Shown: positions 1-63,767 of the stretch, one piece after another
How positions within the stretch are numbered: position 1 is the stretch's first letter
Layout of the letters: the number at the start of each line of letters is the position of its first letter
Origin: Malacoraja senta
Lineage: Eukaryota
DNA length: 64,000 bases
Direction of reading: 5' to 3'
NCBI GenBank assembly: GCA_038087875.1
Contig: CM075989.1
Location: forward strand, 24,802,001-24,866,000
Position numbers and translations under genes: made by a program
The notes under the pieces: model-generated
What the model was told of the DNA's origin: nothing
Seen by the model: the letters and a program-made list of their open reading frames with translations, nothing else
The model's database searches: none

Positions 1-904
1 TCCAGAGATGCTGCCTGTCCCGCTGAGTTACTCCAGCATTTAGTGTCTATCTTCGGTGTAAACCAGCATCTGTAGTTCCTTCCTACACACTACCGGAGAT
101 CCAGGAGGAAAGGTAAATGTGTGTGACTTTCTGTGTGAATATCCTGTATGCCTTGTATGTGACTGATAGGAGTTGCTCTCAAACGTTGCCTATTTCCTTC
201 GCTCCATAGATGCTGCTGCACCTGCTGAGTTTCTCCAGCAATTTTGTCTACCTTCGATTTTCCAGCATCTGCAGTTCCTTCTTGAACGTTACTCTCATGA
301 TGTTGTGGACATGCATTCCAACATCTTGCAGTAGCTTCACATTACTCTAAATTCCCTTATTGCTTTTCCCCAAATGCATTCACTCACACGTTTCTGGATT
401 AAATCCCATTGACTACTTTCTGCCCAAATAGCCAGACTATTTATAACTTCTTGTAGCCTGAAGCTTTCCTACTCATTGTCAAACAATGCTGCCATGTTCT
501 GCTGATTTCTTTATCGTCGTTCTCATCTTTAGATCCAAATCATTCATACATAGTTCTCAAAATGTAAGTGAGTGAGTACTAGTCTCTGTGGAATCCCGTT
601 GGTAAACACCTGCTGTTACTAAAACTCCACCTTCAAACCTTTGTCTCCTGTCTCTGAGCCCGTTTTGGTTCTGTATTGCTACTGTGATTTGGATCTCATG
701 GCCTTTTACCTTCAGGCTTCCGAAAACCCACAGAAACCGCTTCAAACAAAGAGTATTCATTAACCTCCTTACACCTCCACAATGAACACAGTGCTGGAGT
801 AACTCAGTGGGTCAGACAGCATCTCTGGAGAACATGGATAGGTGACGTCTCGGGTCAGGACCCTTCTTCAGTTTTGTTGCCCCTTGGCCACTCTGACTAC
901 ATCA

Positions 905-1035: not shown

Positions 1036-2830
1036 AGGCAGTGCTTTTCCTGTAGACAACAAGATGCCAGTACACACGTCAATTTAAAATTAAGCCACAT
1101 TTATCAACATTTATTTCCATCCCCTTTACTGTTTTGATTTTGTGACCAATCAACTAATTTAAGAAGCTAATAATTAAATATGACAAGTTCTAAACAAATG
1201 AAAATCCAGCATTGCAGATTTTCAATGGGCCAGTACACCATAGTGAACACAGTGGTGGGGAGATACAGCGATGTAGAGGTAGGTTATAGGTGAAATAAAC
1301 CACCCGGCCCCCTTACTGTGGCTGGAGTCTGGTCAGTAAGTACATCTTGTATTAAAATCCATTTTTACAACTTCTGTTGTGAGTGCCTTTTTTAATAGAT
1401 AGTCTGTAGAAATGGTGCAATGGGCATGATCGAAGCAGAGGGCAATGATTGATTTGTTCTCCACATCATCATTTCATCAACCTGCCATTCTCAAAAGCAT
1501 TAAGTGGTCATAAGGTCCTAAGATCATAAGTGATAGGAGCAGAATTAGGCTATTCGGCCCATCAAGTCTACACTGCCATTCAATGGTCAGCAACATCAGA
1601 AACATTTGCTAATCTCTTACCTCGACGGAGATGCGATTTTTTTCCGTATCGTATCTCTGTCCGCACTGCGGGTTAACATCAAGGAGTTGGCGGCCTTTGC
1701 TGGAGACCGACTTCGGGAGCTCCAATTGAATGTTTATATGAACTTTTAAGTAGTTGTGTGCCTTGTTGTTGTTTTTTTTAGCATGGCTGTATGGTAATTC
1801 GAATTTCACTGTACCTTAATTGGTCCACGTGACAATAAACTGACCTTGAAACCCTTGAAACCTTAAAGATTCAGAACGATTGAGGAAACCATCTGCCACA
1901 AAGGGCAGGAGTGGATAATCTCCAGCAGCTTGGCAGAGACGGTTGGACAAGCCAAACTTTCATCTAACACCCAGAGTTTCACAAAGAAAATTGCCCTGGA
2001 GACCATAGAAAGTAGGAGCGAAATTAAAAGGGAAATTAGGCAACCAAAGAAAACATATGGAAAAATATTGCCAAGTAAAATAAGAAAGTAAATCTTGTGG
2101 TGTTTTAGAATTGTGCAAGCGGATAACTAAGGAAAGAACAGATAGTGTTAGGGAACGGAAATACAAAGCTGTACAGAGGTGGGGGTGTCATCAAAACTCA
2201 ACAAATCTATAATTTGGGGTTTAAGAAGGAACTGCAGATGCTGGAAAATCGAAGGTAGACAAAAATGCTGGAGAAACTCAGTGGGTGAGGCAGCATCTAT
2301 GGAGCGAAGGAAATAGGTGACGTTTCGGGTCGAGACCTTTCTTCTTCAGAAGAAGGGTCTCGACCCGAAACGTCACCTATTCCTTCGCTGCATAGAAGCT
2401 GCCTCACCCGCTGAGTTTCTCCAGCATTTTTATCTACCTATAATTTTGGGTTTGTAAGTTAATTGTCCTCAGTAAATTGTCCCTAGTGTGTAAAGCACAG
2501 ATGATAAAATGGGTTAATGTAGAACAAATTTTAATGGGTGACCGATGGTCGGCATGGACTCGATGGGCCGAAGGGCCTGTTTCCATGTTCTATCTCTAAA
2601 CTAAAGTAAACTAAACTATTGGCTGAAGAAATGTGTCCTCTTTTCAGTCCTAAATGGCCTTCCTTCAAATAAACCATGTGAGCCTGGAGGTTTAGAGGGA
2701 TATGGGCCAAATGCAGGCAGGTGGGACTAGTGTAGATGGCATTTTGGTTGGCCTGGGCAAGTTGGGCTGAAGGGCCCATTTCCCAGCTGTGTGACTAAAT
2801 ACAAACAAATCAAAACTAATAATTAGTCAG

Positions 2831-3282
2831 CTGCTCTACATCGGTGAGACCAAGCGTAGGCTTCCCGATCGCTTCACCGAACACCTCCGCTCGGTTCGCA
2901 GTAACCAACCTGATCTCTCAGTGGCTCAGCACTTCAACTCCCCCTCCCATTCCGAATCCGACTTTTCTATCTTGGGCCTCCTCCATGGTCAGAGTGAGGA
3001 CCACTGGAAATTGGAGGAGCAGCACCTCATATTTCGCTTGGGCAGTTTGTACACCAGCGGTATGAACATTGACTTCTCTAATTTCAGGTAGTCCTTACTT
3101 TCTCCTCCCCTTCTCAGCTCTCCCTCTAGCCCTCTAGCTCCTCCTCTTCCTCTTCCTTTCTTCTTCCGGCCCCCCCACCCTCACATCAGTCTGAAGAAGG
3201 GTTTCGGCCCGAAACATTGCCTATTTCCTTTGCTCCATAGATGCTGTCTCACCCGCTGAGTTTCTGCACCACTTTTGTCTAC
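2831..3282 (+). mobile_element. Penelope-like retroelement 3' fragment: GIY-YIG endonuclease C-terminal part plus 3' tail with hammerhead-like core
   Basis: 2831-3091 reads LLYIGETKRRLPDRFTEHLRSVRSNQPDLSVAQHFNSPSHSESDFSILGLLHGQSEDHWKLEEQHLIFRLGSLYTSGMNIDFSNFR*, with the YIG and downstream R, E and N motifs of GIY-YIG. It is followed by a pyrimidine tract and CTGAAGAAGGG..CCCGAAAC at 3191. Confidence 0.88.
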
Positions 3283-4109
3283 CTAATAATGAGCAGATGC
3301 TTCTGCAGCCCTGCGCTGTGGATTGGATGGCGGACGGTTGAAGCGGCCAATGCCGTTAGTCCACTGTCCATGATAAATGAAAGTCATTCCCTAGAATTGA
3401 AAGGCAAGTTCCAATTAAAAGACTGCATGGTAAGTGGAGCAGATGGTGCACTCTTTGTAGTGCAGTGATTAGTATCTATCTATCTTTCACCACTGTAGCT
3501 CTCAGCATTAACAGCACTCAAAACAGCACCGATTACTTTAATTAAACATACCAAGAGTTATGTTACCAGCAAAAATGGTCCAACGATAACATTTGTTTTT
3601 TTGTTTAACAGTGTGATGAATACCACGCTTGTGTTATTCTGCAGCCCGCCAGGACTCCATCACTAGGTGCCCAGGTAGGGGATGTACCACTGCCAGAACT
3701 TTCACAGGACGCTGAGAATGAAATAGATATGTTCTGTTTTTCTCATTCCTGCAAACCATTGAAGGACTGATAGCAGGAGGGGTCGTACATAGGTTACGTT
3801 ACGTTGCTTGATGGAGTATTGCAGCCTGCAGTGAGTATCTGATTGACCCATGGATTCTTAAACTGAGTAAAGATACTGCATTGATTTTGTTTTTCTCCTC
3901 CAGCTATTTAAAGTGATCAAAGTGATCACATAGAGGCGAGGCTTCATTTGATTCCAGTGACTCTCAGCCAATGGATTATTTACTGGGTGTAAATAACATC
4001 TTGCTGAGTCGTCACTCAGGGTAAGTGGGGTGAGGCTCATTGGTGGCACATCTGTCTGGGAGCCAGGGGTTTGTGATAATGCCCCACACTGGGACCAGTG
4101 CACAATCTA

Positions 4110-5066
4110 CACTGGGCCTGTAGTGCAGCACTGGGCCTGTAGTGCGGCACTGGGCATCTGCAGCACTGGGCCTGTAGTGCAGCGCTGGGCCTGTAGTGCA
4201 GCACTGGGCATCTGCAGCACTGGGCCTGTAGTGCAGCACTGGGCCTGTAGTGCAGCACTGGGTCTGTAGTGCAGCACTGGGTCTGTAGTGCGGCACTGGG
4301 CCTGTAGTGCGGCACTGGGTCTGTAGTGCAGCACTGGGCCTGTAGTGCAGCACTGGGCATCTGCAGCACTGGGCCTGTAGTGCGGCACTGGGCCTGTAGT
4401 GCGGCACTGGGCCTGTAATGCGGCACTGGGCATCTGCAGCACTGGGCCTGTAGTGCGGCACTGGGCATCTGCAGTAACTGGGCCTGTAGTGCAGCACTGG
4501 GCCTGTAGTGCAGCACTGGGCCTGTAGTGCAGCACTGGGCCTGTAGTGCAGCACTGGGCATCTGCAGTAACTGGGCCTGTAGTGCAGCACTGGGCCTGTA
4601 GTGCAGCACTGGGCCTGTAGTGCAGCACTGGGCATCTGCAGCACTGGGCCTCAAGTGCAGCGCTGGGCCTGTAGTGCAGCGCTGGGCCTGTAGTGCGGCA
4701 CTGGGCCTGTAGTGCAGCACTGGGCCTCAAGTGCAGCGCTGGGCCTGTAGTGCAGCACTGGGCCAGTAGTGCGGCACTGGGCCTGTAGTGCGGCACTGGG
4801 CCTGTAGTGCAGCACTGGGCCTGTAGTGCAGCACTGGGCCTGTAGTGCGGCACAGGGCCAGTAGTGCGGCACTGGGCCTGTAGTGCGGCACTGGGCATCT
4901 GCAGCACTGGGCCTGTAGTGCAGCACTGGGCCTGTAGTGCAGCACTGGGCCTGTAGTGCGGCACTGGGCCTGTAGTGCAGCACTGGGCCTGTAGTGTGGC
5001 ACTGGGCCTGTAGTGCGGCACTGGGCCTGTAGTGCAGCACTGGGCCTGTAGTGCAGCGCTGGGCCT
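4110..5066. repeat. 19-bp GC-rich minisatellite (CACTGGGCCTGTAGTGCRG) with interspersed 16-bp variant (CACTGGGCATCTGCAG)
   Basis: About 50 tandem units read directly. Confidence 0.95.
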
Positions 5067-7440
5067 GGAACCACGAGCTGAAAACCGCCTGCTCCCTTAG
5101 CTTAGTTTAGTTTAGTTTAGAGATACAGTATTGAAACAGGTCCTTCGACCCATCAAGTCCGTGCCGACCAGCAATCACCCCGAACATGGTGGTCTTAGGG
5201 TCTGTGTCTGTTTAAGTTACAATTATAAGATTTTGTGTTGTGGGCATTACTTGGTGGAAAGGTACAGAGCCTTAGTTCACTAGAACACAATGTAGGAATT
5301 CCTCCAGCCATATCATCAGTTGTCAATCAAACATTTTAAAGTCTGGTAAAATTGATATTATATTGCTGTTGAATTTTTTCAGCATGGAAACTGGCCCTTT
5401 GGCCCACTGAGTCTGCGCCGACCAGCAATCCCCGCACACTTAACCTACACACTAACAACAGTTTTACATTTACACCAAGTCAATTAACCTACAAACCTGT
5501 ACATCTTTGGGGTGTGGGAGGAAACCGAAGATCTTGGAGAAAACCCAGGTCTCTGGCGCTGTGAGGCAGCAACTCTACCGCTGCGCCTCCGTGCTACCCT
5601 AATCATGCAAGACATACAGTATGAGAAGTGTCACAGTTCACCTTTTATCATTGAGGAATGGCCAGTTGAGGTACTATCCCATGACCACAGGAATTTACTG
5701 AAGACTGACACACTCTACACCGCTTCCCTCTCCCAAGCTATTTATTACTCATCACCATTGTGGAGATCAGACAGAAACATCTGAAAACCATCATCTGACG
5801 GTAATATATCTGATGACAGAATGTGACAGTGGAAGGGAGTGGGGTTGATTTATCTGTGTCGACTAACAGGACTGAGCAGATTTATTAACAATGTGGATTC
5901 CCATTACCTGGGTCTGACATAATGAATGGACCAACTCATTGCTGCTGTGGTTTGAGATTGACAATAGTGACTCATCTCTGGAGACCTGGGCTCGGGTGAG
6001 ACGTGTGTCATTTGTGGTTCCTTTTACCTCCCTGCCTTTGAGTAACCTGACCACTAACTGTGGAGTGAAACTATGAAGGTGATTTGTGAACTTCTACTCC
6101 TCGAAGCAGTAGGCGGAGGGAGAAACTGTATCACCTGTAGCTACAATGGCTGCCTTGTTCAATGATCATCTGTCCACAAATAGTGCGATTCTCATTGTTG
6201 GGTAGAATATATAGAGCTCGCTCATTGATTGCTGTGGTGGGAAGACTCTTACTGGGATGAAGCAGATATAATTGATGGGTGACATGGACTTTCATACAAC
6301 CTTACAGGGGAAGGAAGTTCAGACATAGTACTTTGTCCCTGCCCATTAGGTGTCAAGGATGGTGTTGTAACTAAACACTTTGTGTTTGTACACATCTTCA
6401 ACTTCCAATCTTAGCTACTGCAGTGATTTCAGACTCAGGAAAAGGTTCCCAGCTTCACAGAACAGATAATCGCCAGGTAATCGGTCAAGCAGCCATTATT
6501 GATGCCAAGCAACTTTCTCATCATTCGTAATATGATGTGCTCATTTTTCCTGCAAATGTCAGCATCTGCAGTTGAGCTGATTTTCACAGATTCTGAACAT
6601 TCCTCTAAACCTTTGGCCCCATGAAGACTGGATCACCCACCCGAATTCCCATCTGCCTTCCCTCAATAGTGGCACAACTATTAGAGATGCTGCCTGTGTG
6701 GAGTCTGCATGTTCTCCCTGTGACCAATGACACTATGAAATAACAAGGACACTATGAAATCTTTCCCATCTCACCCTAAACCTATGACCTTTGGTTTTCG
6801 ATGCCCCTATCGTAGGTAAAATACTCTGCACATTCATCCTATCTATTCTCATGATTTTATACACCTCTATAAGATCACCCCTCAGTCTCATGGCCTGCTC
6901 AACCTCTCCCTATAGTTCAGGCCTGGCAACATCCTTGGAAAACCTTTTCTCTTTCCAGCTTAACAACTTCCTTCCTACAGCAAGGTGAACAAAACTGAAC
7001 ACAATAGTCCAAATACAACCTCACCAACATAATGTACAACAGTATCATAACATCCCATCTTGTATACTCAAGACCCTGGCTGACGATAGCCAATGTACCG
7101 CCCTATCTACCTGTGACGCCACGTGCAGGGACTACATACGTACCGGCGCTCCGACATCTCTCCAAGCCCCGCCATTCATCTACTTGCTATTTCCTAATAA
7201 ATTGGAAGAATTTGTTTTTCTCTGGAATTCGTCCATCAAAACAATGACATAAATGAAGCATTTTTCTTCCATAATTTTCAGAGAAAAATCCAAATGAGTC
7301 AAATATACTGAAGTAAACTTGAAGAAAGGATGTTGAGGAATTTCTCTGGTTTACAATATTCAGTGGGCCATTTATGATTCACAGTTGCTAGATAGGGCAC
7401 ATCAAATCTGGTTAACAAATTACCTCACAAAAGGACACCG

Positions 7441-7750
7441 AGTGCTGGAGTAACTCAGCGGGTCAGGCAGCATCTGTGGAGAACATGGATAGGTGACGTT
7501 TCACAGAGTGCTGGAGTAAGTCAGCGGGTCAGGCAGCATCTGTGGAGAACATGGATAGGTGACGTTTCACAGAGTGTTGGAGTAACTCAGTGGGTCAGGC
7601 AGCATCTGTGGAGAACATGGATAGGTGACGTTTCACAGAGTGCTGGAGTAACTCAGTGGGTCAGGCAGCATCTGTGGAGAACATGGATAGGTGACGTTTC
7701 ACAGAGTGCTGGAGTAACTCAGTGGGTCAGGCAGCATCTGTGGAGAACAT
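7441..7750. repeat. 66-bp tandem repeat derived from Penelope tail (~5 units)
   Basis: (agtgctggagtaactcagcgggtcaggcagcatctgtggagaacatggataggtgacgtttcacag)n. Confidence 0.92.
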
Positions 7751-8594
7751 CTCTTGCAATGTTAACTGATTATCGCCCCCTGTAGGCAGAGGATGGCACA
7801 GCGGATATGTTGTCCTGTTGAGTTTCACTGTCCGTATAACCCATTCTCACCTACCCCAACAATAGACCATTTCCTTGATCATCGTTGCTTTTTGCATATC
7901 TTCTATATCTCTGGTTTCCATTTCCCCTGAGTCTGAAGAAGGGTCTCGAACCAAAACGTCACCTATTCCTTTTCTCCAGAGATGCTGCCTGTCCCGCTGG
8001 GTTACTCCAGCACTATCTGTCTGTCTTGGATTTTCATTCAGCTGTGTTCAGGGTTGGTTTGGCATTAACTTTTCTTGCAATTGCTTGCTTTTCTCTAAGC
8101 TTCAAGTTTGTCATTCGCTCAGTACTGTTGTTTGAGACGACTCCTGTCTGACTCTCTGAGTTACTCCAGCACTTTGTGTCCTTTAGTGCATTAACCAGCA
8201 CCTGCAGTTCTTTGTTACATCTCCTTCGTTGTAGTAAACTCTCAATGTCACCTGTGTTAACCGCACCGGCTGTAATTGGGTAATGCAGCTATTATTTTAA
8301 ACCTCAGCTAAAGCCAGGCATCAAGGCTGGCCAAAGTACATTCCTCAGTGGCCAACTACCTGCAGGCTCCTTCTGCCGTTCCAAAAATAGATTGAGACTG
8401 ATCCAGCTGGATTTGTGCATTTTTTTCCTCGAATTTTACGATGTTTCCAATTTCAATTCATTCAACTAACACTCAGAATAAATTAGAATGGAGAACAAGC
8501 AAGCAAGCAGGGTCCGCAAAAATATTTAATGAAGGTGTCGGATCAGATCAACAGACTACAACTGATGTTTTTGTCAAAGCTCGCTGTGCAGAGA

Positions 8595-9449: not shown

Positions 9450-9744
9450 AAGACTTATGTAACAGAGGCACATGGAACTGCAGATGCTGGAATACTTAGC
9501 AAAACACAAAGTGCTGGAGGAACACAGCGGGTCAGGCAGCATCTTGGCAGGGGATGGGCAGGCGACATTTCAGATTGGGACCATTCTTCAGATTCTATAA
9601 TATTCTACTTACAAAAGGAAAATGAATAGGTGATCTTGAAAGTGTTATCTTCACACAGCCATGTCCATTGACTCCCCGTGAGGGACCTTAGGTGCACTTC
9701 AAATGCACTTAGCTGCACTTTGCAACAGGCAAAACATACCGAAT

Positions 9745-9990: not shown

Positions 9991-10042
9991 CATGCTGGTT
10001 TGTCCCCACTGCTGCCAATTAGGAACTGCATACTCTCACTAA

Positions 10043-10373: not shown

Positions 10374-12351
10374 TAACTCTCTCACTCTCACAGCTGCCTG
10401 ACTGGTTAGCACGCAAGAAAAGCTTTTCACTGTACCTCGGTACACGAGACAATAAACTGAACTGTTCAGCAGGAAGAATTACCGCTCACCAGGACGAGTA
10501 ATCGTGCTTCAAGATTAATAAGAGTGGGAGCCTGTTGATCTGATTCCACTTGTTTATTAAATCGTTTCTGCAGATCACGCTTGCTAGTTCTCTGCTCTAA
10601 TTTAATGTGAGTGTTATCTGAATGAAATGCACGGGAAAAGCATCATAAAACCCGAGGCAACTGTACAATCTCCAGATGGACCAATCTCCAGTTACATCTG
10701 ACTGTTGTTAGGATCCCTCAAATATTTGATGCCTTCTAGCACTGCTCAGTCCAATCGTTGAGGTCTACATTGAATGAGTAGGCAAATAGAATCATAGAGA
10801 CACAGGCCCTTCGGCCCGACTCGTCCATGCCAACCAAGATGCCCCATCTAAGTTAGTTCCATCCAAGATAGAAGGATATTTGCATACTTCAAACATTCTG
10901 CACAAACCAGTTCTGCTGAGACCAGGGTGCATTGAAGCAGGGACCAGGGAAGCATTCCATGAATGGTCCAACGAGGTTGGGAAGTGACCAAAGTCACACA
11001 GGTAGAAACAAGGAGCTGCAGAGGCTGGTAAACAGCATCACGGGGAAAACAGGTGATGTTTCGGGTTGGACCCGTGTCTGAGGAAGGATCCCAACCCGAA
11101 ACGTCACCTCTCCATGGATGCTGCCTGACCCACCGAGTTACCCCAGCACTTTGTGTCTACTGTTTAAGCTACACTGGTGCTGGGGGAATACAGGGAGAGG
11201 CACAACGTCCTGGTGAAGTCGTCCACACATGCTCCTTGATTATGTGCAGGATTCCTAAAGCACAGAAACCAAGGTATTGTGTACAGATTGCTAAAGATTT
11301 GGCATGGAACATATGTCAAGATAGAAGCAGTGACCGTCAGGGCCAACTGTGGACACCTGGCAGAGGGCAGCAATGCCTCACCCCCCTCCTCCTCCTCCTC
11401 CTACTCACTGGGACAATAAGCTGCAGACAAGCTCTGTTCACATTTGGGTAGCAAGAGTGACCTCTAGTGCACTAAATAGAAGGCAGCCTGAAGCTCTAAA
11501 GCCTCAAAGTTGCAGTGTGTAGTACTGGATTTTTAATCTGCCATATAATCAATTTCTATGAAAAATCAATTAAATCAGAACGGTGGCGCAGCGGGTAGAG
11601 CTGCTGCCTCACAGCGCCAGAGACCAGGGTTCTATCCTGACTATGGGCGCTGTCTGTACAGAGTTTGTATGTTATCCACATACACTGAACTTTTCTCTCT
11701 CGTTTATTATATTATTTACAGTGTACTATGTTTACATATTGTGTTGTGCAGCAGCAAGTGAAAATGTCATTGTTCTACTTGGGACATATGACAATAAAAC
11801 ACTCATCTAGAAGAGCACTGAAATTGCCCAAACATTGGCAGCTGAGGAACAAGTATGGGGAAGGTGGGATAGTATGGATGGGAATGGCCCACAGGACAGA
11901 TTGGGCTCATGGATCCCTGTCTGTGTTACAAATATAACAACGTGATGAGGAGACGCACGCACACAGAAGATCCAGGAGTTACGGGTGTCAGAGGTTATGG
12001 GGAGAAGGCAGGAGAATGTACTACATGAAATCAATATTTCAATTAATCAATATCACCTGAGACTGCCCTTCTGGTTATCAATACTATCTTTGCTCATCTC
12101 ACCTGCTAACTTGCTGGTCATAACTGCTGCCTTCATCTCTGAACTGTAACCATGTATAACATACATGCCATGTCACCCCTGTTACAGGCGTCCAGTCACC
12201 AACACCATCTTCCAACCATCAACAAGCACATTTTGGATCCCGTTTGCAACTTAGAAGGAGGGTGCCGTTGACGTGAGATGTGCCGGGGACGTGCAGAGTG
12301 CTACCGCAACCAATGATCACAAGGGTACAGCATCCTACTTCCATCAATGAA

Positions 12352-12652: not shown

Positions 12653-13693
12653 GCCCACATCAACTCATTACCAGGTGAGTGAACGGCTTTAGTTTATCTC
12701 CTGTAAAGGTCAGCGTTCTCCTGTGGGATCCCTCTTGTCCCGCTGGGTTTCTCTAATAGGTTGTTTATTATCCTGCGAGTTGTTGAGTAAAATCCTCACT
12801 CTCTGTTTCAAGAAGCTAATCCCACCGGCCAGCTGAAAGGACAAACACAGGCAACATATCTTTCGTTGTGTAGGAAGGAATTGCAGATTCTGGTTTACAC
12901 CGAAGATAGACACAAAATGCTGGAGTAACTCAGCGGGACAGGCAGCATCTCTGGAGAGATGGGATGGGTGACGTTAGGTCGAGAATCTTCTTCAGACTGA
13001 GAATCATGGGCGAGGGAGACACGGAGATAAGGAAGGACAAAGTGGGAAAACGAGACATCAAAAGATGAGATCAAGGGGAGATGAGATCAAGGAGATAGAG
13101 GATGAGAGAGCAGAGAAAGACAATGAAGAATGGGCAGACAAGGAGAATCCAAACAACTGGAAACATTCCCACATGGAGCAAGTGTCATGTTGAGAGGAAT
13201 TCTCAGGGCCTGTCAGCCATGTGGTGCCATCAACCGGGAGACAACAGATATGTGTATAGTATGCTGCCACAATTATCAAATCATATTAACATCTGCAGTG
13301 TATTTCCTCATTATGGCAAAGTGTCTTCACTTGAGCACACATGTTGGGGATACCGGAGAGCTGCCAAAATAAATAGTATTCCTTCTTTCACATTACACTC
13401 TCTCTGAACCATACTTCCAAGCCAGTTCTAATCTAAGTCACAAGTTTTTGAAATGTAATGCAGACATAACAATGATTCACGAGGTCGTCAAATTCTAATG
13501 ATTTTCTGAATGGCATTTAAAAAAAGCTAACTACCTGTAGAGAGTATGACCAGACAGACTTGCATTTGTATAGCGCCTGTGATTGATAACCTCACAATAT
13601 CCCAAAATATATGATCAGCTTCTGGATTAATACGGGTGTCAAAGGTTACCGGGAGAAGGCAGGAGATGGGGTTGAGGGAAAGATATGCCTGCA

Positions 13694-14030: not shown

Positions 14031-15374
14031 GCCGCCTGCCCGAACACCACCAGGCCCAGTCCCGTGATGCCATCTTTGCCACGAGGAGCAGCACCAACAC
14101 TCACCGCTTCCCTGACCGATCTCAGGCCCGGACCACCGAGTACGCCACCGTCGCCGACCTCCACATGGCCGCTGCCGCCGACCTTCACCTACCCACCAAT
14201 GGCGCCGATCCTCGCCGTCTCACCAGGACCTCCAACTATCGCCGCTTCACCGCGACCGCCGACCCTCGCCGTCTCACCGGCCATCTGCTGACCGGGACTT
14301 CCGGCACTTCGCCCACTGACCCGGACTCCACTCCTCGCGGGCCTCCACCATTGACTCTACCGACCCTCGCCACTCCACCGCCCACCAGCAGGCCACAGCC
14401 GTCGCCTTACCTGAGTCCCAGGCTCAGCACCGGGCCTGAAGTCACCTCTTCCCAGGGTGGAATTATCCAACACTGGAGGACACAGCTTTAAGGTGAGAGG
14501 GCAAGGGTTTGTACACAGAGGGTGGTGGGGGCCTGGAACACACGTGCTGCCAGGGGTGGTGGTGGAGGCAGGTACCATACTGGCGATTGGCTTTCAGATA
14601 GGCACATGGATGTGCAGGGAATGGAGGGATACGGATCACGTGCAGGCAGAGGAGATTAGATCAACCTGGCATCATATTGGGAATGGACATTGTGGGCTGA
14701 AGGGCCTGTCCTGTACTGTTCTATGTTCTATGTTAGTTCTATGTACGTTAGAACAGCTGTTGGAGCCCTTTTCCTCCACAGCAGAGATGTACAGGCAAGG
14801 GGAGAATACTGTACATCAGAAGTCATTGACTGGGTTTCCTGCTTGAAGCCAACACCACTCTGACTTCCAGCAAATGCTGAGGTGTTGAAAGTTGTGACAG
14901 CTCATTACGTTAAAAGTCAAGTCTAGACAGAGAGGTATTTGTAATCCGTGTCCAGAGCTATGGGTTTTTTCCCTCTCTTTTGTAGAGAGCTGCAGTACAT
15001 ATAAACATCTCAATGTTTAAGTAATTGGAATTCTTAGCACATGACTCAATTTGAGATCATTATGTCAACCTGCACTGACACATCACGGAGCCAGTGACAG
15101 TGGCCCGGATAGGTGGCCTTATGGTCCGGTGTTCATCATGAATAGGGTTCAGTACCGTGCTCTGTAGACCCTGCATTACATTACCTTGATGTGCAGCAAG
15201 GAACTGCAGATGCTGGTTTATACCCAAGATAGACACAGAGTGCTGGAGTAACTCAGCGGGTCAGGCAGCATCTGTGAAGAACATGGATAGGTGACGTTTT
15301 GGGTCAGAGCCCTCCTTAAGACCCCTGTCTGTCTACCTTACATTACTTTGATCCCTGATTTACACCCTTGGTAC

Positions 15375-15766: not shown

Positions 15767-15794
15767 CTGAAGAAGGGTTTCGACCCGAAACGTT
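15767..15794 (+). ncRNA. Minimal hammerhead ribozyme motif in the loop of a 64-bp fold-back
   Basis: CUGAAGA-A-GGGU-UUCG-ACCC-GAAAC-GUU, with palindromic AACGUU at helix III. Confidence 0.55.
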
Positions 15795-16721
15795 GCCTAT
15801 TTCCTTCGCTCCATAGATGCTGCCTCACCCGCTGAGTTTCTCCAGCATTTTTGTCTACCTAAACTAAAATTGGGCATTGGAGTCCTTGCCTCTGACGCAT
15901 CTACAACAAGGAAAGGACTTGCGTCAAACAGCACAGTCCACAACCACAGATTGGATAGTCCACCATTAACAAGATAATAATGAGGTAGCCCAGCATTGTA
16001 CATTAGCCACTAGGAGGTGGCTGTGGGTGTGGGCAGTGGGGGATTGTGGCCACAGCCAGTTGTTGTGGTTCTCAGGGCATGCTATGGGTGGACTTTTGGA
16101 GTGAAGGAATGGGTGACGTTTCGGCCCGAGACCCTTGTTCAGAAGTAAAAGGGTCTCGACCCGAAACATCATCCCTTCCTTCTCTCCAGAGATGTTACCC
16201 GTCCTGCTGAGTTACTCCTGCATTATGTGTCTATCTTCAGTTGAAACCAGCATCTGCAGTTCCTTCCTACAGCTCTTGTGTTGCCAGGTTTGCGAGTTAG
16301 AGATCCCCCCTGCTGCTGCTGCAATCTTCACGAAGCAGATTTATAGACGGCGTGAAACGAGCGCATTTCATGGATATGTAACTGTTGGGGAAAACCTTTC
16401 AGCTGCCGGTTGGTCCTAAAATGCAACATCTGTGAATCTTTAATTGATAGTAAAAACTAATGATGGTTCTGGGCTCTGGAGAGTGCAGTTTAAAGACACC
16501 GTCACTAATTACCATATTAATGGGAGGCTAAAGAATAAGTATAAAAATGGTTAAACAATATATAATCCAGAATATTGAGAAGAATGCAGTGCAGGTCTTT
16601 GACAAAACCTCAGCTGCCCAGCCCCATGGGATGATCCCTCGTGCATCATCTAGCCTCTTCTATTGTGTGTTCTAAATGCTGGAGATGTAGGCTGCACTAC
16701 ACAGGAAGGCTCTATGATAGA

Positions 16722-16983
16722 CAGAGTGCTGGAGTAACTCAGCGGGTCAGGCAGCATCTGTGGAGAACATGGATAGGTGATGTTTCACAGAGTGCTGGAG
16801 TAACTCAGCGGGCCAGGCAGCATTTCTGGAGAATATGGATAGGTGACGTTTCACAGAGTGCTGGAGTAACTCAGCGGGCCAGGCAGCATTTCTGGAGAAC
16901 ATGGATAGGTGACGTTTCACAGAGTGCTGGAGTAACTCAGCGGGTCAGGCAGCATCTCTGGAGAACATGGATAGGTGACGTTT
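16722..16983. repeat. 66-bp tandem repeat (4 units)
   Basis: Same unit as 7441-7750. Confidence 0.92.
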
Positions 16984-17870
16984 CCGGTCGAGATCCTTCT
17001 CCAGATATACATGGATACAGTGTCCCCTAGACCTCTCTTGCTTGGTGGGGCTCAGAGAAGCTCCCTTTCAATCCTAACTCCATTACTCAGTTGTAAGATG
17101 TGACATTTATCAAAAGTTATCAGTTGTTCATAAATGATTACAAACCACTTTATAATCTGAAGGGTCCTGACCTGAAACGTCACCTATCCATGTTCTCCAA
17201 AGATGCTGCCTCATCCACTCACTCCAGCACTTTGGGTCTTTTTTTGTCAAGAGTGTTTTATTGTCATTTGTCCCAAATAGAACAATGAAATTCTTACTTG
17301 CATTAGGTTTAGGGTTAAACTAGCATCTGCAGTTCCTTGTGTCCACAAACCCGTTTATTTGTGAATGCCTTTTGTCAAGAGTGTGGTCATCTTTGGTGGC
17401 TAAGTTCAGATAAAGTTCTTTCAGACAGTGACATCAACGTTGAGATGCGTAGAAGGATTCGCCGGGCTATTTCTGTTCACTTTACATGCTGTAAAATGGG
17501 GTTGCAGTGAGGAGCTGCAGCGAGCTATGAGACAATAGTGTGGGAGATGGTGAGGGAATGAGAATGCTCTTCACCACAGATCTCCAACGGCTGCCCGCTT
17601 CCACAAGTAGACACAGTCGTTTACTTTGTGAGTCGAGGCTGCATTGTTTCATTCAGGTGTGAACTCAATAAACTCAATTCAGCCATTTTGGCTGATTCAG
17701 GATTGAGAATCTCTGCTTATTCAAATCACTCCTAGTCAGATGGTGAAGCTGAACTTGCAGCACCCAGCACATTGAGTCAGGCCACAGTTTCCACAGCAGT
17801 AGGTTTGGTTTTGGAGTGGTTGTGTTTTTGTACAAAGTAGTCACTGATCTGCAGAGTGCCGTAGACTCCT

Positions 17871-20285: not shown

Positions 20286-22524
20286 CCAGTATTGTGCAGG
20301 TTGGAGGGTGAACAGACGAGGGTAACTTGCCCCGGGTGTGGGAGAGTGGTGGGAGATTCGGGTTGACGTTAATGGGCAAGTGAGAGGTTGCAAGGGGGGA
20401 TTGGTATTGATGCATTGCTCTGGGAGCCAGCATAGATTCAAAGGGCTGAAGGGCCTTCTGCTCTGCTGCAAGGATATGTGCCACCGTGGGGTTCCTCCAG
20501 TAATATGCTTTCTCATATTGAACCATATTCGCCTCAAAGTAATACAAAGTATGCTTAATTACTGGAGTAACTCAGCGGGACAGGCAGCATCTCTAGAGAC
20601 AATGAATGGCTCGTGACCCTTCTTCAGGTCGAGATGTTCTCAACCCAAAACGTCACCCATTCCTTCTCTCCAGAGATGCTGCCTGTCTCGCTGAGTTACT
20701 CCAGCATTTTGTGTCTACCTTCAGTTTAAACCAACATCTGCAGTTCCTTACTGCACATGCTTATTTACTGGTTATTTAATATTCCTGCCTCCACCTATAG
20801 TTCTGATAAGTTGCTGCTGTAACAAGAATCAGAGAAAACCAAAGATTCACAACTTGCTGTGTTTGAGAGCAGTGAAGAAAAAGCAAATATCAGTTTGTGA
20901 TCACCGGGTGAATGGTGCTAATGTGAAGAAGGGAGTCTAGTGGTGAATGGATGGAAGATGAGGCAGAGGAATGGTGTGAGAGGATCTCACCGTGGGGCCG
21001 AGTGGGACCAACTCCTTGACTGTCATCCATTACATCTCCCCCCTCCCCCCCACCCCTTCTCCCCCTCCCCCTCCTGTGCCAAGAGTCTGTCAACAAGGAA
21101 AGGATATCGACTTACATGAGCGAACATCACCCCTGGGGACATGAAGGGTCAGAGGAGTTTATAAGCCTGTGTGATACGTGATGCTTTCAGTTTGACAGGG
21201 AAGGTTTGGTCACTGGAGATTAGCCAATGATGGTTTGCACCCAGATGCTGTCTGGCCCAGAGTTCCTCCTGTACACTGTGCTTTGCTGAGGATTCCAGCA
21301 TCTGCAGTTCCCTGTGTGTGCAGCTCTCTCTGCTCCAGGGTGCACGGAGTGAGTTGTGCAGCAGTGGGTTTGGAAGCGGCGAGAGTGGGCATGGATCCCG
21401 TGTACATGTTGGAGCGGTCCCTGTGTTAACCCGAAACAAAAATACAACGTGCTGGAAAAACCCAAAGATCAGGCAGCAATATGTCTTCAGGCAGTCTTCA
21501 AGGGCAGTCACGTCACGTCACGGTGGCGCAGCGGTAGCGTTGCTGCCTTACAGCAAAATGCAGTGCTAGAGACCCAGGTTCGATCCCGACTACGGGTGCT
21601 GTCTGTACGGAGTTTGTACGTTCTCCCCGTGACCTGCATGGGTTTTCTCCGAGGTCTTCAGTTTCCTCCCACACTCCAAAGACGTACAGGTTTGTGGGTT
21701 AATTGTCCAATGCTGAGTGATGCTCAGCCTCGAGCTTTTCAGCGTTCCACATCCAGATCCAGACTCAGCCTGTTGTGTTTGGAAGGACATTGAGATTCAG
21801 GTTAAGTTGGCCCAGAGCTGACGCCTCACTGGCACAAAGCTAACTTTCATCCTTCTGCTTCCCAATATACAGATTTGTTTTGGTTAGGAAGGAACTGCAG
21901 ATGCTGGTTTAAACCAAAGATAGACACAAAAAGCTGGAGCAACCCAGTGGGACAGGCAGCATCTCTGGAGAGAAGGAATGGGTGACATCTCAACCTGGGA
22001 CATCACTATCCCTTTTGTCCTGAGATGCTGTCTGACCCGCTGAGTTACTCCAGCTTTTGGTGTCTATCTCTAGATTTGCTTTACTCTCTGGACAAATCAT
22101 ACTTTCTGACAAGGACCGAAAAAGCAGAGTTGAATCGTGAGGATGAGATTTTAACCCGTGCACGTGATGTACAGGAATGAATTACACTGTACCTCTGTAC
22201 ATGTGACAAATAAGGTACCATAAGAGGGAGAGTGGACCTTGCTTTCTGGGTTCTGCTGTCAACTTGGGCCATTGGTGTGAGACAAGGTGGTCAGACTCTG
22301 CCCTCTACAGGCCTCGCTGAACAATGCGTCTCTGACCACTGGTCTGTGCGGTGTCACGTGGACACTGACCACCTGGTTCATTGTCAATGGAGAATCACAG
22401 CCAGTTCCCACAAATCTCAAGAGGCCACGGCGCATTGATTAGCCCCTTGAAAGCCTCTGATTCCGGCTCATACTGGCACATCAACACTCGCTTTTAGGCA
22501 TCAATCAATTTTAAGATTGATTAG

Positions 22525-22825: not shown

Positions 22826-24147
22826 GAAGATGTTCCGGGCGTGAAGTCGCATTGTGGTTGGGAAAACCACAGGATGGAAAACCCTGCAAGCTGAGGAACT
22901 AATATCTCTTCCATGTGGTAAAGAAAAGTAACTATCTCTCAGCCTATGGTCTTGTTTTCATCTCTGGGCTTGGTCCACCAAATGCCCATCATTCACCCTC
23001 ACCTGTATCCACCTATCACTTGCCTGGCTTTGCCCTGCCCCTCCTCTCTGCCAGCTTTCTTTCCCCTACTATAATCCATCTGAAGAATGGCCCTGACTAG
23101 AAACGTTGCCTATCCATGTTCTCAGCCCCCGGAGATGCTGCCCTCCCCCTCGCCTCCCCCTCCCCTCCCATCCTCTTCCCCCTCCGCCTCCCTCTTCCCC
23201 CTCCCCTCCCTCTCCACTCCCTCCTCCTCCCCCGCCCTCGCCCTCTTCCCCCTCCCCCCCCCTCCGCGCTGTATCTCTAAACTAAACTAAAAACCTAAAC
23301 ATTAGCAAAATGCGATGTCTGCAGGATGTGGTCGGGAGCCACTGAGTTGCACCATTAATAATCTCCCAGGTAAGGACAGGTGAGACTGGGTTAAGGTGGG
23401 AGTTAAAGAGAGTACCCAGCCCTGGAGTAACACTGGTTCACTCTTTACAAGATTCACAAGATGTTTTCCGTACATTATTTAATTGTTCCTGTGCTCTACA
23501 TGTTAATGTACATTCACTCACACACCCTGTGGTGCTGAAGCACGTCGGCATGTTTACTGTGGCCAAAGGATCTATACATCGACCAATGACAATATGTGGA
23601 TCAGCAAGTATTGGCCATTCACCAAGGAGCTGGTTAATTTGCCACATGTTCTTCATTACGCTTCACGTTGTACATCAGTGATGTGGATGAGGACATTGGA
23701 GGCTTGGTGGCCAAGTTTGCAGATGATATGAAGCTAGGTGGAGGGGCAGGTAGAGTAGAGAACGCTGGGACTCTGCAGAAGGAAGTGGATCGGGCTTGTT
23801 ACCTCAACAGCAAAAGCAGAATGTCTGCAAGATTACAAGAGGCAGAGGAGAAGTCGTCAAAAACATCTTTTCCCGTGATAGGCAAAAAAGTATAAATAGG
23901 AAGATTAATAGTTTCAGGTGAAAGAAAGGAGTCTTAAATGACATCTGAATAGTATTACATATTCACACAGTGAAGGGACTGGTGCACTACCATGCTGTAT
24001 TCTGCATCCTGTATCTTCCCCTTTGCTCCACCTATTGTACTTGAGTTTGAACTGTCTGTATCTATGTATAGTATTTCTGATCATCTATTGGAAAGTAAAC
24101 AAAACAAAGCTTTACTCTGTACCCCAGTACACATGGCAATAACAAAT

Positions 24148-26650: not shown

Positions 26651-28596
26651 AGCTACTGAAAGGAATGTAAATCGTACCATGGTCCTCTGCAGGAAACACA
26701 AGGGGAGATCCTTGGTTTCACACTTGCCTCAGGTCCCTTATTGAGAAAAATGTATTTAAAAAATAAGAATAATTAAGCATAGAATAATTAAGAATTAAGA
26801 ATATTCTGAAGAAGGGTCTCGACCCGAAACATCACCATTCCTACTCTCCAGAGATGCTGCCTGTCCCACTGAGTTACTCCAGCATTTTGTATCTACCTTT
26901 CAGAATAATTAAGGAAGTGGCTTTCCTATTTAAAAAGGCTTGATAACTGCCCTCAATCCAGGCCACACACTACTGAAAGGAGCCCACATCCCAGAGCAGC
27001 AGAGAACTCCCTGCCACTGTAGCACAGGAGAGGACCATGTGCACATGTGTTGAGAGGAAGTAGTCAGCTGAACAGGGCACGTTTTCATGCGGTTGAACCA
27101 ACTAACTGGAGTCTGCAGCAAGTTCGCCAGTGAGGGCCCGATGACCTCATCTCCTCCTGCTCTTTTAACTTTGTGATTTCCAATAAAACTGGTGAAATAT
27201 TTTGTAACTGTATATTTAACATTTTTGTAAATCACTGAACATAAAATGTGGCACTTTCCAATTTATCTAAATTAACGCAAATTGGATAAAAGCTTTGCTG
27301 CTCATTCTGCCAACAAGAGAACGGAAACATGTCCATTCAATGCACGATACACCACTCATACAGCTGAATGTCATCTTCAAGTTAACCCTTTGCTTACTGT
27401 CCAATTTTCATTTCATTACCTCATTGATAAAAATCAGACATATGTTCTGGAGAATAAATAATATGATTTATTATATTAACTAATATATTGAATCAAAGGA
27501 ACCAAAACCAAAAACTATAAATATCTCGAAAGCAGGATTTCTTTATTGAGGCAAATCACTTTGAAGTGTTATTCATATAGGGAGAGCGTGGAGGGCAAGG
27601 TATCAATTCCTCATGAATTCCATCAGGATTTGCTGTGAGGGTGAACGAGGTTAGTGTGAGCATGTTGTCTACAGAGCCTCCAATGTTACCACACAGCCCT
27701 ACTGGACTCTGAGATCGCCAGTGATGCTGACAAACTCTCATGTCCCATCCACGCTATAAATCCTCCTCACATCCTCTAAATCTCTGACATCTTACCGTGA
27801 TCTATGCCTTTTCTGTCACAGACATTATGTTTTGGAGAGAAGTTTCCTACTATTACCCTAGTTCTCCGTCAGCTTTCTCCAATCCAAGGAGCAGCCACCA
27901 GCCAGATGTTAGTCCCCCTGAGTAAAACCAGCTAAACATAGTTTCTGTGAGGTTACGTAAAGAGGACAGGTACATAGATAGGAAATTTTGAGGGATATGG
28001 AACAAACAGCAGCAAATGGGAATTTCTTAGATGGGATGTCTGTGCCAGCATGGACGAGTTGGGGTGAATGGCCTGTTTCCAAGATCGATGACTAAAAGAT
28101 TCTTAGTCCCTGGAGTCTGGGGCTGGAAACCCACTTCAGATGTGGGGAGGGGGGGGGCAGGGGAACCCCTGTATCTAAAGCTGTTGGAAAGAACTGCAGA
28201 TGCTGGTTTAAACCGAAGATAGACACAAAAAACGGGAGTAACTCAGCGGTAAAACACTTGTTGAGTTACTCCAGCTCTTTGTTATGGTTCTCCCTTGAGG
28301 CATCCTACAGTTTGGTTTAGTTTAGAGATACAGCGCAGAAACAGGCCCTTTGGCCCATCGAGTCCACACCGACCAGCAATCCCCGCACACTCACATTACC
28401 CCTACACACACTAGGGATAATTTAACATTTATACCAAGCCAATTAACCTACAAACCTGTATGTCTTTGGAGTGCGGGAGGAAACCAAAGATCTCAGAAAA
28501 AACCCATGCAGGTCCCGGGGAGAATGTACAAACTCCATACAGACAGCACCCATAGTCGGGATCGAACCCGGGTCTTGGGAGCTGCAAGTGCTGTAA

Positions 28597-32279: not shown

Positions 32280-32582
32280 TGGTGGTGCAGCGGTAGAGTT
32301 GCTGCCTTACAGCGCTTGGTGCCGGAGACCCGGGTTCGATCCCGACTACGGGTGCTGTCTGTATGGAGTTTGTACATTCTCCCCGTGACGCCATGGGTTT
32401 CCTCCAAGATCTTCGGTTTCCTCCCACATTCCAAAGACGTGCAGGTTTGTAGGTTAATTGGCTTGGTGTAAGTGTAAATTGTACCCGGTGTAGAGTAGAG
32501 TTAATGTGTGGGGATCGCTGGTCAGTGCAGACTCGGTGGGCCAAAGGCTCTGTTTCCATGCGGTATCTCTAAATTAAACTAA
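32280..32582 (+). mobile_element. HE1-like V-SINE
   Basis: Same A/B boxes, V-domain and tail. Confidence 0.85.
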
Positions 32583-37325: not shown

Positions 37326-38716
37326 AGCAAAATACTGCAGATGCTGAAAATACAAAATTAAAAAAGGTAAGTCAATAGAGGAGGACATGGCAGGTGGAAT
37401 ATAATGTGTAAACATTGCAAATTTATCCACTTTGATAAAAACATTTAAAAAACACAGCTAATGGGGAGTGTTTGAAAGGTGTTGATGTTCAAAGAGACAA
37501 TGGATGTCCTTGTACATAAACCACAGTGAGTTAACATGATGCTGCAGATGTCAATTACAAATTATATGTTGGCTGTTATCACAAGAGGATTTTAATCGAA
37601 AAGTGGAGATTTCTGGGTTTAATTCCCAAGCTAAGGTGAGACTGCATCAGGAATATTGTATAGGAAGAAACTGCAGATGCTGATTTACACCAAAGATACA
37701 CACCAAATGCTGGAGTAACTCAGCGGGTCAGGCAGCATCTGTGGAGAACATGGATAGGTGACGTTTCACAGAGTGCTGGAGTAACTCAGCGGGGCAGGCA
37801 GCATCCCTGGAGAGAAGGAGTGGGCGACGATTCTTCAGATTGGAGAACGTCACCCATCCCCAGAACGTTGTCCACAGAACTGGTCTCCCTACATAAAGAT
37901 GGGGATACTTGCAATGCTGCAGTGACCACCCAGGTGTGGTTAGCAGAGAGGTTGATGGGCTAACTTTATGATCGTGTCAGTGTGCTGGGTCTTCAGAGAT
38001 ATGCATGACCAGGAATTTGAGGTTTTGACTCTCTCCACGACCGTCCCATAGAATGAAGCCAGGTTTGTCGATCCTTGTACCTCCTCTCAGTTCTAAGTAG
38101 ACAACCCCTGTCCAAAAATGTTGATGTCTAGTTTCTGATCATGGGACAGGTCCTGTCAGCAACCACTCTATCAGCTCTGCCCCAATTTTATTTTAATGCA
38201 TCAATGAAATCATCCTTCATGCTTCTAAATTCTGGGAAGGACCAATAAAGCATATCGCTCATGTAATGAGTTCTAACCCACAGTAGGTTGAGCTGTTAAT
38301 AACCGCAGGCTCTGTAAAGGGTGTATTTCTAACTTTACTTTTCTTTCTTTATGATTTTGTTGTGAGTTTTTAAAAAGCCAGCTCTTCATTAATGTTGATA
38401 TTTCATTGGAATTCTTGCAAATATCCTGACCTTTCACCTAAACGTCAAACAATGATGTGATTCTGTGCAGATATATACATGTATGTCTGAAGAAGGGTCT
38501 CGACCCAAAACATCACCTAATCTGTCTCCACAGATGCTGCCTGAGCCACTGAGTTACTCCAGCTTTTTGTGTCTGTCTTTGGTTTTATATATATACTAGA
38601 CCAAGTGCAGACCCGTTGGGTCTGGACACCGAGTAACTAATATATGTATTATTTATACATGATTTAATATATGATTTAATTATTTATTTTCTACCTGTAT
38701 ATTTATTATATATATA

Positions 38717-40923: not shown

Positions 40924-42189
40924 CACAATATAATTATATTTCTATATTATATGTAAGTATTTTCAGTCAAGAGGCAGGACATTAAATGCAGCAGCAATCT
41001 GCTGGTAGAAGACATCTTTTGTTTGCTTTGTTTTTATGCATGAGTAAACCAATTCTCTGGCGCTGCACCTAAGGAGATTGGTTGCATTGTAAAGCTGTGA
41101 TTGTCAATAAAAAATGACAATGATGAGAGCAGAGCAGGTTGATGCTGAGGACTGAAAGGAAGAGGCATGGTTAATGGACACAGTTATCACCACCATTCCC
41201 AGCCTGGTTTACAGCAAGATGTTTATCCATCCCTTCACCTTATAACTGGGTTGCACTTTGTGCAGTTTTGAATATATATTTGCAGTGCTCTGACCTCACC
41301 TGCCTTTACGCAACTCCCAACAAAAGGCGCAGTAACTCAGCGGGTCAGGCAGCATCTCTGAAGAATGTGGATAGGTGACGTTTCGGGTTGGGACCCTTCT
41401 TCTGACTGATTGTAGTAGATGGGGGAGAGAAAGCTGGAAGGGAGGTGGGGGCAGGGCAAAGTTTGGCAAGTGATAGGTGGATACAGGTGAGGGGGAATTC
41501 TGATTAGCAGGTGATTGGACAAATGCCAGAGATGAAAAGAGAAAATGTGTGAGTTAAGGAGATGAGGATGGGATGAGAAGCCAGAGGAATAGATATAGAT
41601 GTTTAGTTTCTCTTTAGATTAAAGATACAGGGTGGAGACAGTCCTTTCGGCCCACCAAGTCCGCGCCGACCAACCAAAACGCATACACTAGTTCTACACT
41701 ACACGCTAGGGACAATTTGCAGAAACAAACCGACACGTCTTTGGAATATGGGAGGAAACAATGGACCTTTGTGGGCTCCACCTTTTCTTGGTCATCGGTG
41801 CCGGCTCCGATTTGTTCTGAATCATGTCATACCCTAAGTTTTCCTCTCCCCTCAGTCTCAGTCTGAAGAAGGGTCTCGACCCGAAATGTCACCCATTCAT
41901 TTTCTCCAGAGATGCTGCCTGACCCGCTGAGTTACTCCAGCTGTTTGAGTCTATCTAGTAGATCTAGATAATCTATGGCGTAAACCACTAATCAGGAATG
42001 TAAACCTGCCCCATTCTCCTGCTTTTGGCAATTCAATTGAAACTGTCAACATGACACGGCTCTAACTCACTCCTGATCTCATCTTGCACTTGTGTATTTA
42101 AACAAACTGAGAGCAGCCCCGCTCCGCTCTCTCTATTCACAGCGGCTGTTCGTGGTCCTGTCTGGCGTGCGGGGAAAGGCATTGTCCCC

Positions 42190-42688: not shown

Positions 42689-63767
<21,079 letters not shown>

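Follow-up and report, generated by a model that had tools for sequence, protein, structure and literature searches.

One of the commonest repeats in the 64,000-nucleotide stretch of Malacoraja senta DNA analysed here (the window) contains a minimal hammerhead ribozyme motif, which raises the question of how so short a repeat was multiplied and whether the ribozyme took part in it. An earlier note on this DNA had listed 20 copies of the motif and proposed that they represent a short, ribozyme-bearing, non-autonomous derivative of a Penelope-like element. All 20 positions were confirmed, 19 of them with no more than six edits and the one at 23080 by means of a profile, with small shifts of the coordinates (46258 instead of 46260, 58275 instead of 58276, and 844-871 and 41377-41404 for two minus-strand copies). 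Every listed copy is real, but the copy number, put at about 20, was too low: a profile of the 3' end of the element, constructed from 21 longer copies, had 67 matches in the window, 32 of them across the hammerhead core. A strict minimal-hammerhead descriptor gave four matches in the window, all from one repeat family (100 shuffles: mean 0.05, maximum 2), and no further hammerhead family was detected by descriptor in 663 kb. The Rfam scan of the window returned no hammerhead match at E ≤ 10; its 32 matches at this level were all under the gathering scores, and the miRNA-like ones among them were head-to-head pairs of the repeat.

Judged by sequence, the repeats are the non-coding pseudo-LTR (pLTR) core of a Neptune-type Penelope-like element. 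Longer copies extend upstream into a GIY-YIG endonuclease and a reverse transcriptase with the YIDD motif, and a search with the N-terminal part revealed open frames of up to 1,276 amino acids. The proposed link to Penelope was borne out by a full intact element in the genome (L161, G000:C8), where a core is followed 163 bp later by an ATG and a 1,221-amino-acid ORF, with a second core 120 bp past the stop codon. Pfam detected RVT_1 (E=5.9e-6) and GIY-YIG (E=0.002) in this ORF, both under the curated cut-offs; a single ORF with reverse transcriptase and C-terminal GIY-YIG is the architecture of an EN+ element. The protein had 889 relatives at E ≤ 1e-20, and those with 39-54% identity include cnidarian and mollusc proteins. 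It possesses a CCHH motif: a pair of cysteines lies between GIY and YIG (LIYCICCSRCQLIYIGE), and two His-bearing motifs follow. The linker ahead of the endonuclease is CNRKRCNTC (CX4CxxC). According to PMC8557442, a CX2-5CxxC linker is common to Neptune and Nematis and absent from Penelope/Poseidon; by these criteria, linker and CCHH motif place the predicted protein in Neptune or Nematis. Tandems of the element have units of 3.87-4.1 kb, ten alignments longer than 3 kb were 95-98% identical, and the intact L161-type element is apparently young, its copies being about 98% identical. Partial tandems forming pLTRs, an inverted truncated copy and a 30-40-bp tail were all found.

Three further features of long frames were observed. 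The young ORF (L161:2086-5748) contains a long proline-rich, partly repeated stretch at about residues 170-500, before the conserved N-terminal motifs, and its relatives mostly have 700-950 amino acids. The 3' UTR of one young copy (L177:5690-8430) is a tandem of about 2.7 kb between the stop codon and the hammerhead. Long frames with endonuclease and reverse transcriptase of up to 884 amino acids that adjoin Penelope copies at L069, L063 and L164 are presumably L1-like ORF2.

Two element 3' fragments with coding sequence lie on the plus strand of the window itself. The GIY-YIG fragment noticed ahead of the motif at 3191 is real (LLYIGETKRR...DFSNFR*, with Pfam GIY-YIG at only E=0.22 here); this copy (2826..3295) consists of the GIY-YIG end (2831-3091), a pyrimidine-rich UTR, the core (3191-3218) and the short 3' end. 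The coding fragment ahead of 55216 proved to be the C-terminal end of the same coding stretch, and this copy (54903..55312) continues with the UTR and the motif; the motif is there, but its core (55216-55243) is broken (CTGGAGA).

The massive amplification that had been claimed was seen alike in the window, in a genome sample and in exact genome-wide core counts. The sample of 60 hand-spaced 10-kb stretches (598.8 kb without N) contained 307 profile matches, i.e., 5.1 ± 4.1 per stretch or 6.4% of the bases (alignment overshoot included), which extrapolates to about one million matches in the genome. Exact searches counted 45,361 intact cores, 18,581 cores of the youngest type and 1,059 head-to-head junctions, with zero matches to the reversed-pattern control in each case. 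The copies form nine subfamilies with an internal divergence of 2.4-12.6%; short copies are the largest class in most of them, and subfamily alleles are common to short and long copies. Endonuclease-linked copies were found for subfamilies 24, 4 and 3, and subfamily 14 has one by reading (L181); no coding-linked copy was seen for subfamilies 23, 38, 17, 25 and 13 with a profile that misses diverged parents. With coding-linked copies in subfamilies 24, 4, 3 and 14, autonomous elements are the apparent source of the short copies, as abbreviated products. Of the proposed non-autonomous derivative, the abundance of short copies holds, but a separate, self-copying lineage appears improbable. Our literature search found no report of hammerhead ribozymes in elasmobranchs (Repbase and Dfam, outside that search, may already hold the family), nothing on Neptune or non-autonomous Penelope elements in elasmobranchs, and, among the papers listed, no application of "strong-stop" to Penelope pLTRs. 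The motif and its carrier are already known, and the repeat family is of an ordinary kind; less ordinary are the start of the copies just before the motif, not at the predicted cut site, and the probable spread of a young 66-bp unit into old copies by DNA recombination near chromosome ends.

The identification as a minimal type I hammerhead was upheld, as the layout agrees with the motif published in PMC4209133, with some corrections of detail. Helix II is present, but the pairing GGGUC/GACCC is better taken as a 4-bp stem (GGGU/ACCC or GGGU/GCCC) capped by a YNCG tetraloop, and local helix I, given as 2-3 bp, has 2 bp in the corrected reading. The supposedly canonical CUGAUGA at 61642 is a private change of that copy, the family sequence being CUGAAGA. 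The conserved core, the extra base, G10.1-C11.1, the palindromic helix III and the NUH triplet are kept in the six largest of the nine subfamily majorities, and three small clusters (n=6-10) have CpG decay at G12 or in the palindrome. Changes across the nine majorities comprise loop II, the closing pair (U-A to U-G), GUC to GUU and CpG decay. This constancy suggests selection on master elements; since other blocks downstream of the motif are equally invariant across the majorities, it is not hammerhead-specific.

The dispersed copies decay neutrally. Their non-CpG core bases are 91-98% conserved, like the non-core bases, CpG bases 70-83%, and G12 is lost in 26% of the copies, so that the expected excess conservation of the core does not exist in them. 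Among 183 copies of the genome sample, 72 kept the core bases and 29 all hammerhead elements; among the 32 core-spanning copies of the window, the core bases were kept in 12, and core, helix II, palindrome and 2-bp helix I together in three. These three are 15767..15794 (plus strand, with 4-bp helix II, CG palindrome and 2-bp helix I), 58920..58947 (plus, one G-U in helix II, in the solo stump 58917-59022) and 61615..61642 (minus, with the private CUGAUGA, in the stump 61552-61645). The motif at 57478..57505 (plus) has an exact core, and its helix I is one pair, as the copy begins one base before the core. The hammerhead has decayed in most copies and is probably inactive.

Predicted folding gave a similar picture. 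Helix I, of 2 bp, has a computed pairing probability of at most 0.014, the stability of the predicted fold was not significant (z -0.20 and -0.78), and the active monomer fold lay 2.7-10.3 kcal/mol above the best predicted fold in six constructs; the ground state that was predicted thus differs from the active conformation. Energies computed for dimers take no account of tertiary contacts and were set aside. Variation of helices I and II within the family is one-sided only (U-A to U-G). Distant relatives have different helix II sequences and helix I sequences of 3-6 bp at the same place (12 of the 49 metagenome loci with room, counted as descriptor matches within 700 bp after the endonuclease, helix III being mis-split in some rows). 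Such motifs were reported to be inactive as monomers and weak as dimers in vitro (PMC4209133), and the anole motif to cut only with protein and to be dispensable for insertion (PMC11167929).

The repeats are insertions of about 95 or 130 bp, flanked by target site duplications and with fixed ends. Positions are numbered with C3, the first base of the core, as 0 (profile position 421), so that the predicted cut falls after +27. The copies end at one of two 3' sites, 92-95 or 127-131 bases downstream of C3 (in the young subfamily, +90..95 in 18 of 30 copies and +127..131 in seven of 30), and the known 30-40-bp tail makes the difference. The 5' ends fell at -8..+1 in 113 of the 167 sample matches reaching there (0.068 per base), compared with 5 of 239 at the cleavage site (0.005 per base, no peak at +28) and 9 of 17 across a 350-bp stretch of upstream sequence (0.0015 per base); the rates were also elevated in the UTR and at +2..+19 (0.013-0.014 per base). 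Base conservation fades across -1..-6, and local alignment blurs copy ends by a few bases. Since the 5' ends lie 0-8 bases before the core and not at the cut site, we concluded that cleavage does not make the short copies; cleavage-defined 5' ends are excluded by the missing peak at +28. With neither its cores kept better than the flanks nor its 5' ends at the cleavage site, the family had been called ribozyme-bearing in terms too strong for most copies. Target duplications of 8-15 bp flanked 20 of 105 solo copies (one being an array self-match), compared with 1.4 on average for 10 shuffled pairings. For 12 of 105 copies (two being array self-matches), the empty site in another repeat was contiguous. 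In contigs from other organisms, loose ends were found at the same positions, so the end pattern is shared. An extra G of the kind that a cap would leave was not consistently present among the 20 duplication-bounded copies (one an array self-match), a point against an RNA start at the boundary.

An inverted arm was present within 150 bp of 29 of 128 sample copies, and the arms of these head-to-head pairs join at the near-palindrome CAG-T-CTG. Pairs in the window lie at 2215..2450 (long tail on the minus arm, short end on the plus arm), 15650-15881 (with the complete motif 15767..15794 in its direct arm), 16096..16274, 20557..20761, 21874..22075 (without the 5' half of the core) and 60814..60982 (core-less stumps). 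Fixed ends, head-to-head pairs and 66-bp arrays are features that the earlier reading had missed.

Further copies in the window are stumps. On the plus strand, they are located at 7902..8038 (core at 7933, broken), 11076..11172 (core at 11078), 23070..23142 (diverged, core at 23080), 26804..26927 (core at 26806), 32193..32281 (core at 32195, broken), 33526..33624 (with UTR remnant, core at 33549), 38485..38590 (core at 38487, G12 removed by CpG decay), 41843..41963 (core at 41863, palindrome broken), 45870..45988 (core broken; newly found), 46256..46392 (with tail and a 9-bp candidate target duplication), 49088..49188 (core at 49090, broken) and 58273..58412 (with tail, C3 mutated). Minus-strand stumps are at 786..871 (solo, beginning at the first core base, core broken: GAGA), 9467..9594 (with tail) and 12858..13029 (with UTR remnant and tail), both absent from the earlier list, 15184..15323 (with tail and two alleles typical of the 66-bp unit, no junction) and 41320..41454 (with UTR, core broken).

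Four candidate exons (42612-42792, 48664-48745, 51643-51741 and ~55349-55428, plus strand) may belong to one putative plus-strand gene, whose peptides we take to resemble a transmembrane channel-like (TMC3-type) protein; one of the exons was searched against the PDB, with no match. Sense stumps are not depleted in the putative introns (42600-64000), with 12 plus-strand vs 4 minus-strand loci and the near-intact cores 57478 and 58920 among them, which is compatible with little cleavage of the pre-mRNA, the numbers being small. Other tandem arrays of the window (~4100-5100, 18245-19700, 42148-42600 and 43200-44450; 19-bp, 11-bp, 15-bp and GT-rich units) are as expected near a chromosome end.

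The young subfamily allowed the comparison of copies with different priming sites. Among 30 young ORF-crossing copies (of 40 matches, and including L161 itself), 20 pass -20, 10 end at +3..+83 and none at -8..0, whereas 15 of 30 tail-primed copies begin at -8..0. Hence, 0 of the 20 ORF-crossing copies reaching the boundary stop there (Fisher p=8e-5 against the tail-primed copies), a contrast weakened by one further ORF-crossing match that starts at the exact head-to-head junction (C1:63771568-63771687). Since boundary stops occur in tail-primed but not in ORF-crossing copies, the boundary belongs to first-round synthesis.

We favour, with moderate confidence, the explanation that the short pLTR-core insertions arise by internal priming and run-off at an RNA start upstream of the hammerhead, with the arrays as products of later gene conversion. 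The RNA would begin at TCAGTCT, which resembles the initiator consensus; a weakness is that the DPE-like stretch is three bases off the usual DPE spacing. The reverse transcriptase would prime at one of two internal sites and run off at the RNA start just upstream of the hammerhead, and such run-off likely makes the 5' boundary. The two 3' ends would be the priming sites, as for the anole element (PMC11167929). Pairs would arise when both strands of the cut are primed and the two cDNAs then anneal, while long copies would come from a second, multimeric template pool, as the second round passes the boundary. The hammerhead would ride along in the short copies and then decay; selection on it would act only in the masters, through slow cutting of multimeric transcripts, as a dimer or aided by protein. 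A further weakness is that a start here predicts full-length copies stopping here, of which there are almost none, so a second template pool had to be assumed. The 10 of 30 ORF-crossing copies that end at +3..+83 are unexplained by run-off. In D. virilis, Penelope has an internal promoter with the start further upstream (PMC2377424).

As an observation on the same region, one AGAUGCUG can pair with either of two CAGCAU copies, each of which lies ~15-20 nt before one 3' end (profile positions of the three segments: 467-475, 496-503 and 526-533); this pairing may set the priming sites.

Alternatively, the 5' boundary could be set by a protein or a structure: a domain of about 130 nt would be held, so that first-round synthesis aborts or the endonuclease cuts at its upstream edge beside the C-rich tract. 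This is unlikely, though it merits serious consideration, as it would explain why the second round passes the boundary and agrees with the raised end rates in the UTR and at +2..+19. Moreover, in the predicted fold of the young subfamily, the first core bases pair with the end of the tail and close the domain at both copy boundaries. However, an older tailed copy lacks this closing helix in its predicted fold, although the boundary is common to older subfamilies as well, and the 5' junction shows additional bases and short segments copied again (L317, L333), which would resemble run-off at a template end.

More doubtful is a separate non-autonomous family that copies itself, with its own internal promoter, the Penelope enzyme and a working hammerhead. 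Fixed ends, target duplications, the roughly one million matches and the predominance of the short class in most subfamilies are what such a family would show, and TCAGT is kept in 8 of the 9 subfamily majorities, while bases further upstream vary. Against a separate family speak the subfamily alleles common to short and long copies and the coding-linked copies of four subfamilies; half of the short copies begin too late to include helix I or the whole initiator, and a working hammerhead is at odds with the retention of all its elements in just 29 of 183 sample copies and with ends away from the cleavage site.

The 66-bp unit forms a layer of its own. It spans +20 to +86 and was found at six loci of the window with 13 junctions: 7418..7747 (minus, four junctions, core-less host), 16702..17005 (minus, three junctions, behind a decayed host core), 36039..36241 (plus, one junction, host with UTR remnant), 37653..37870 (minus, one junction, host from another subfamily), 54701..54889 (plus, one junction) and the head-to-head pair 59708..60106, whose minus arm (59708-60011) has three junctions. 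These arrays repeat only the 3' half of the hammerhead, and no tandem of complete hammerheads is present there. Genome-wide, 15,536 exact junctions were counted, and the first 100 listed were all in C1:2.70-3.40 Mb. On C13, junctions were present in 7 of 7 stretches at 24.0-25.0 Mb and in 1 of 5 other stretches, and they were found in 6 of 20 stretches near the ends of C1-C9 (the ends of C10-C21 being mostly unsampled) vs 0 of the 60 sample stretches (p=1.3e-4). The clusters C1:2.70-3.40 Mb and C13:24.0-25.0 Mb appear as domains of ~1 Mb with sharp edges and no gradient toward the chromosome end; no junctions occur on C1 before 2.69 Mb, nor in samples from 3.6 Mb on. A general end-of-chromosome effect does not explain such sharp edges.

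The unit is much younger in sequence than its hosts: 57 inner units diverge 1.6% from their majority, compared with 16% for the 25 recognisable host cores (43 arrays), and GAAACGTC is intact in 54 of 57 inner but 8 of 25 first positions. Array hosts come from several subfamilies. The unit allele stands on both sides of the array in 19 of 32 scorable arrays (of 39) vs 41 of 396 single stumps; a second allele was present in 17 of 27 right-hand units vs 7 of the 99 single stumps located in clusters and 3 of the 297 elsewhere. A composite insert of ~120 bp, which includes an inverted segment from the young subfamily, occurred seven times, on C4, C5, C9 and C13, and travels inside 66-bp arrays (L370, L376, L394, L397 and L404). 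Two-sided alleles, clusters at chromosome ends and a travelling insert fit gene conversion between chromosome ends, by which the young unit has likely spread into old stumps there; a single duplication would have been distributed by ectopic gene conversion. Our literature search found no earlier report of a homogeneous 66-bp unit in Penelope stumps.

We considered a route through RNA for these arrays, in which the element's reverse transcriptase would write them from a 66-nt RNA circle that the host core cuts at the repeated GUC, followed by insertion into existing stumps by homology. What the unit repeats is precisely the substrate half (GAAACGUC and, after it, ACC); with the following unit as its partner in cis, a first core could form a complete helix III (ACGU/ACGU), and the unit as a circle has a predicted fold of -10.7 kcal/mol (300 shuffles: -4.8 ± 2.7). 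Nevertheless, host sequence is replaced on both sides, the arrays lie near chromosome ends, just 10 of 25 host cores have retained CUGANGA, the arrays are accompanied by a complex inverted insert, and the cis fold of core and unit lies 5.3 kcal/mol above the best predicted fold, which makes this route very improbable. We give equally little credence to its bolder form, the unit as a homing parasite of stumps: a catalytically empty retrozyme that would lend a helix III strand in cis, be excised as a 66-nt circle by the host core and be rewritten into homologous copies by the Penelope enzyme.

Finally, an origin of short copies from spliced RNA, with the boundary as a splice acceptor (pyrimidine tract, CAG/T), is hardly credible and largely refuted despite the strong acceptor-like sequence, because the predicted spliced join, built with the exon-end consensus, gave 25 genome matches, 0 of 15 examined having upstream coding sequence, uninterrupted target DNA flanks 12 of 105 copies (two array self-matches), conservation continues past the AG, and no GT..AG joint was seen among the joints examined in contigs of other organisms. 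The D. virilis intron that ends at helix I (PMC4209133) is in its favour.

The value of these repeats lies in what they record about the copying of Penelope elements, a process that is still poorly understood. In vivo, a very large number of insertions with 5' ends away from the cleavage site is in agreement with the finding for the anole element that RNA serves as template without being cut (PMC11167929), and the contrast between first- and second-round copies is a direct test of pseudo-LTR formation. In the 66-bp unit, the colonisation of dispersed copies by a minisatellite, from one chromosome end to another, can be measured. The additions made here are the second-round contrast, the intact partner element and the 66-bp unit.

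Compared with the minimal hammerheads described in PMC4209133 (Cervera and de la Peña 2014), the motif has the same CUGANGAH, G-C first pair, GAAAN, palindrome and NUH, is likewise located in the pLTR, and its copies are also mostly dispersed, single or on opposite strands; the layout of the Acropora Neptune motif is the same. Helix I consists here of U-A + G-C or U-G + G-C, whereas the 2-bp examples there are G-C pairs. The 45,361 exact cores compare with ~4,000 hammerheads in coelacanth and ~9,000 in Xenopus, and the examined part of the table and alignment of that paper contains no cartilaginous fish. EN+ Neptune-type elements (Craig et al. 2021, PMC8557442; Adineta, PMC3846280) share with ours the reverse transcriptase, CX2-5CxxC linker and CCHH GIY-YIG, as well as partial tandems, an inverted truncated copy, a 30-40-bp tail at one end, target duplications and solo pLTRs; the passages of these papers that were examined mention neither a sharp 5' boundary at the hammerhead nor a predominance of stumps among the products. 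Some EN+ families have a spliceosomal intron in the pLTR.

For PAc, the anole Poseidon element, Frangieh et al. (2024, PMC11167929) describe two internal priming sites that make the tail, comparable to the two 3' ends here, cutting and extension of both strands, a hammerhead unneeded for insertion and no reads ending at the cut site. In PAc, the hammerhead contains the start of the ORF, within which priming takes place, whereas here both sites precede the ATG and lie in the 5' UTR. Non-LTR retrozymes (PMC7229834; bioRxiv 10.64898/2026.07.22.740005), of which 120,000 were reported in axolotl (PMC7229834) and some in one chondrichthyan genome, are also non-coding and pLTR-derived, with a type I hammerhead and common monomers; unlike them, the window has no complete-hammerhead tandem, and the 66-bp unit is without the CUGANGA-helix II half. 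The closest parallel to the arrays is the subtelomeric 52-bp minisatellite in Xenopus SINE/tRNA-V (Bredeson et al. 2024, PMC10794172), whose tandem expansion is likewise confined to copies close to chromosome ends and was ascribed to recombination. Unlike that case, the arrays here have a Penelope stump as host and a unit that covers the substrate half of a hammerhead; their age contrast, the two-sided replacement and the travelling insert were measured.
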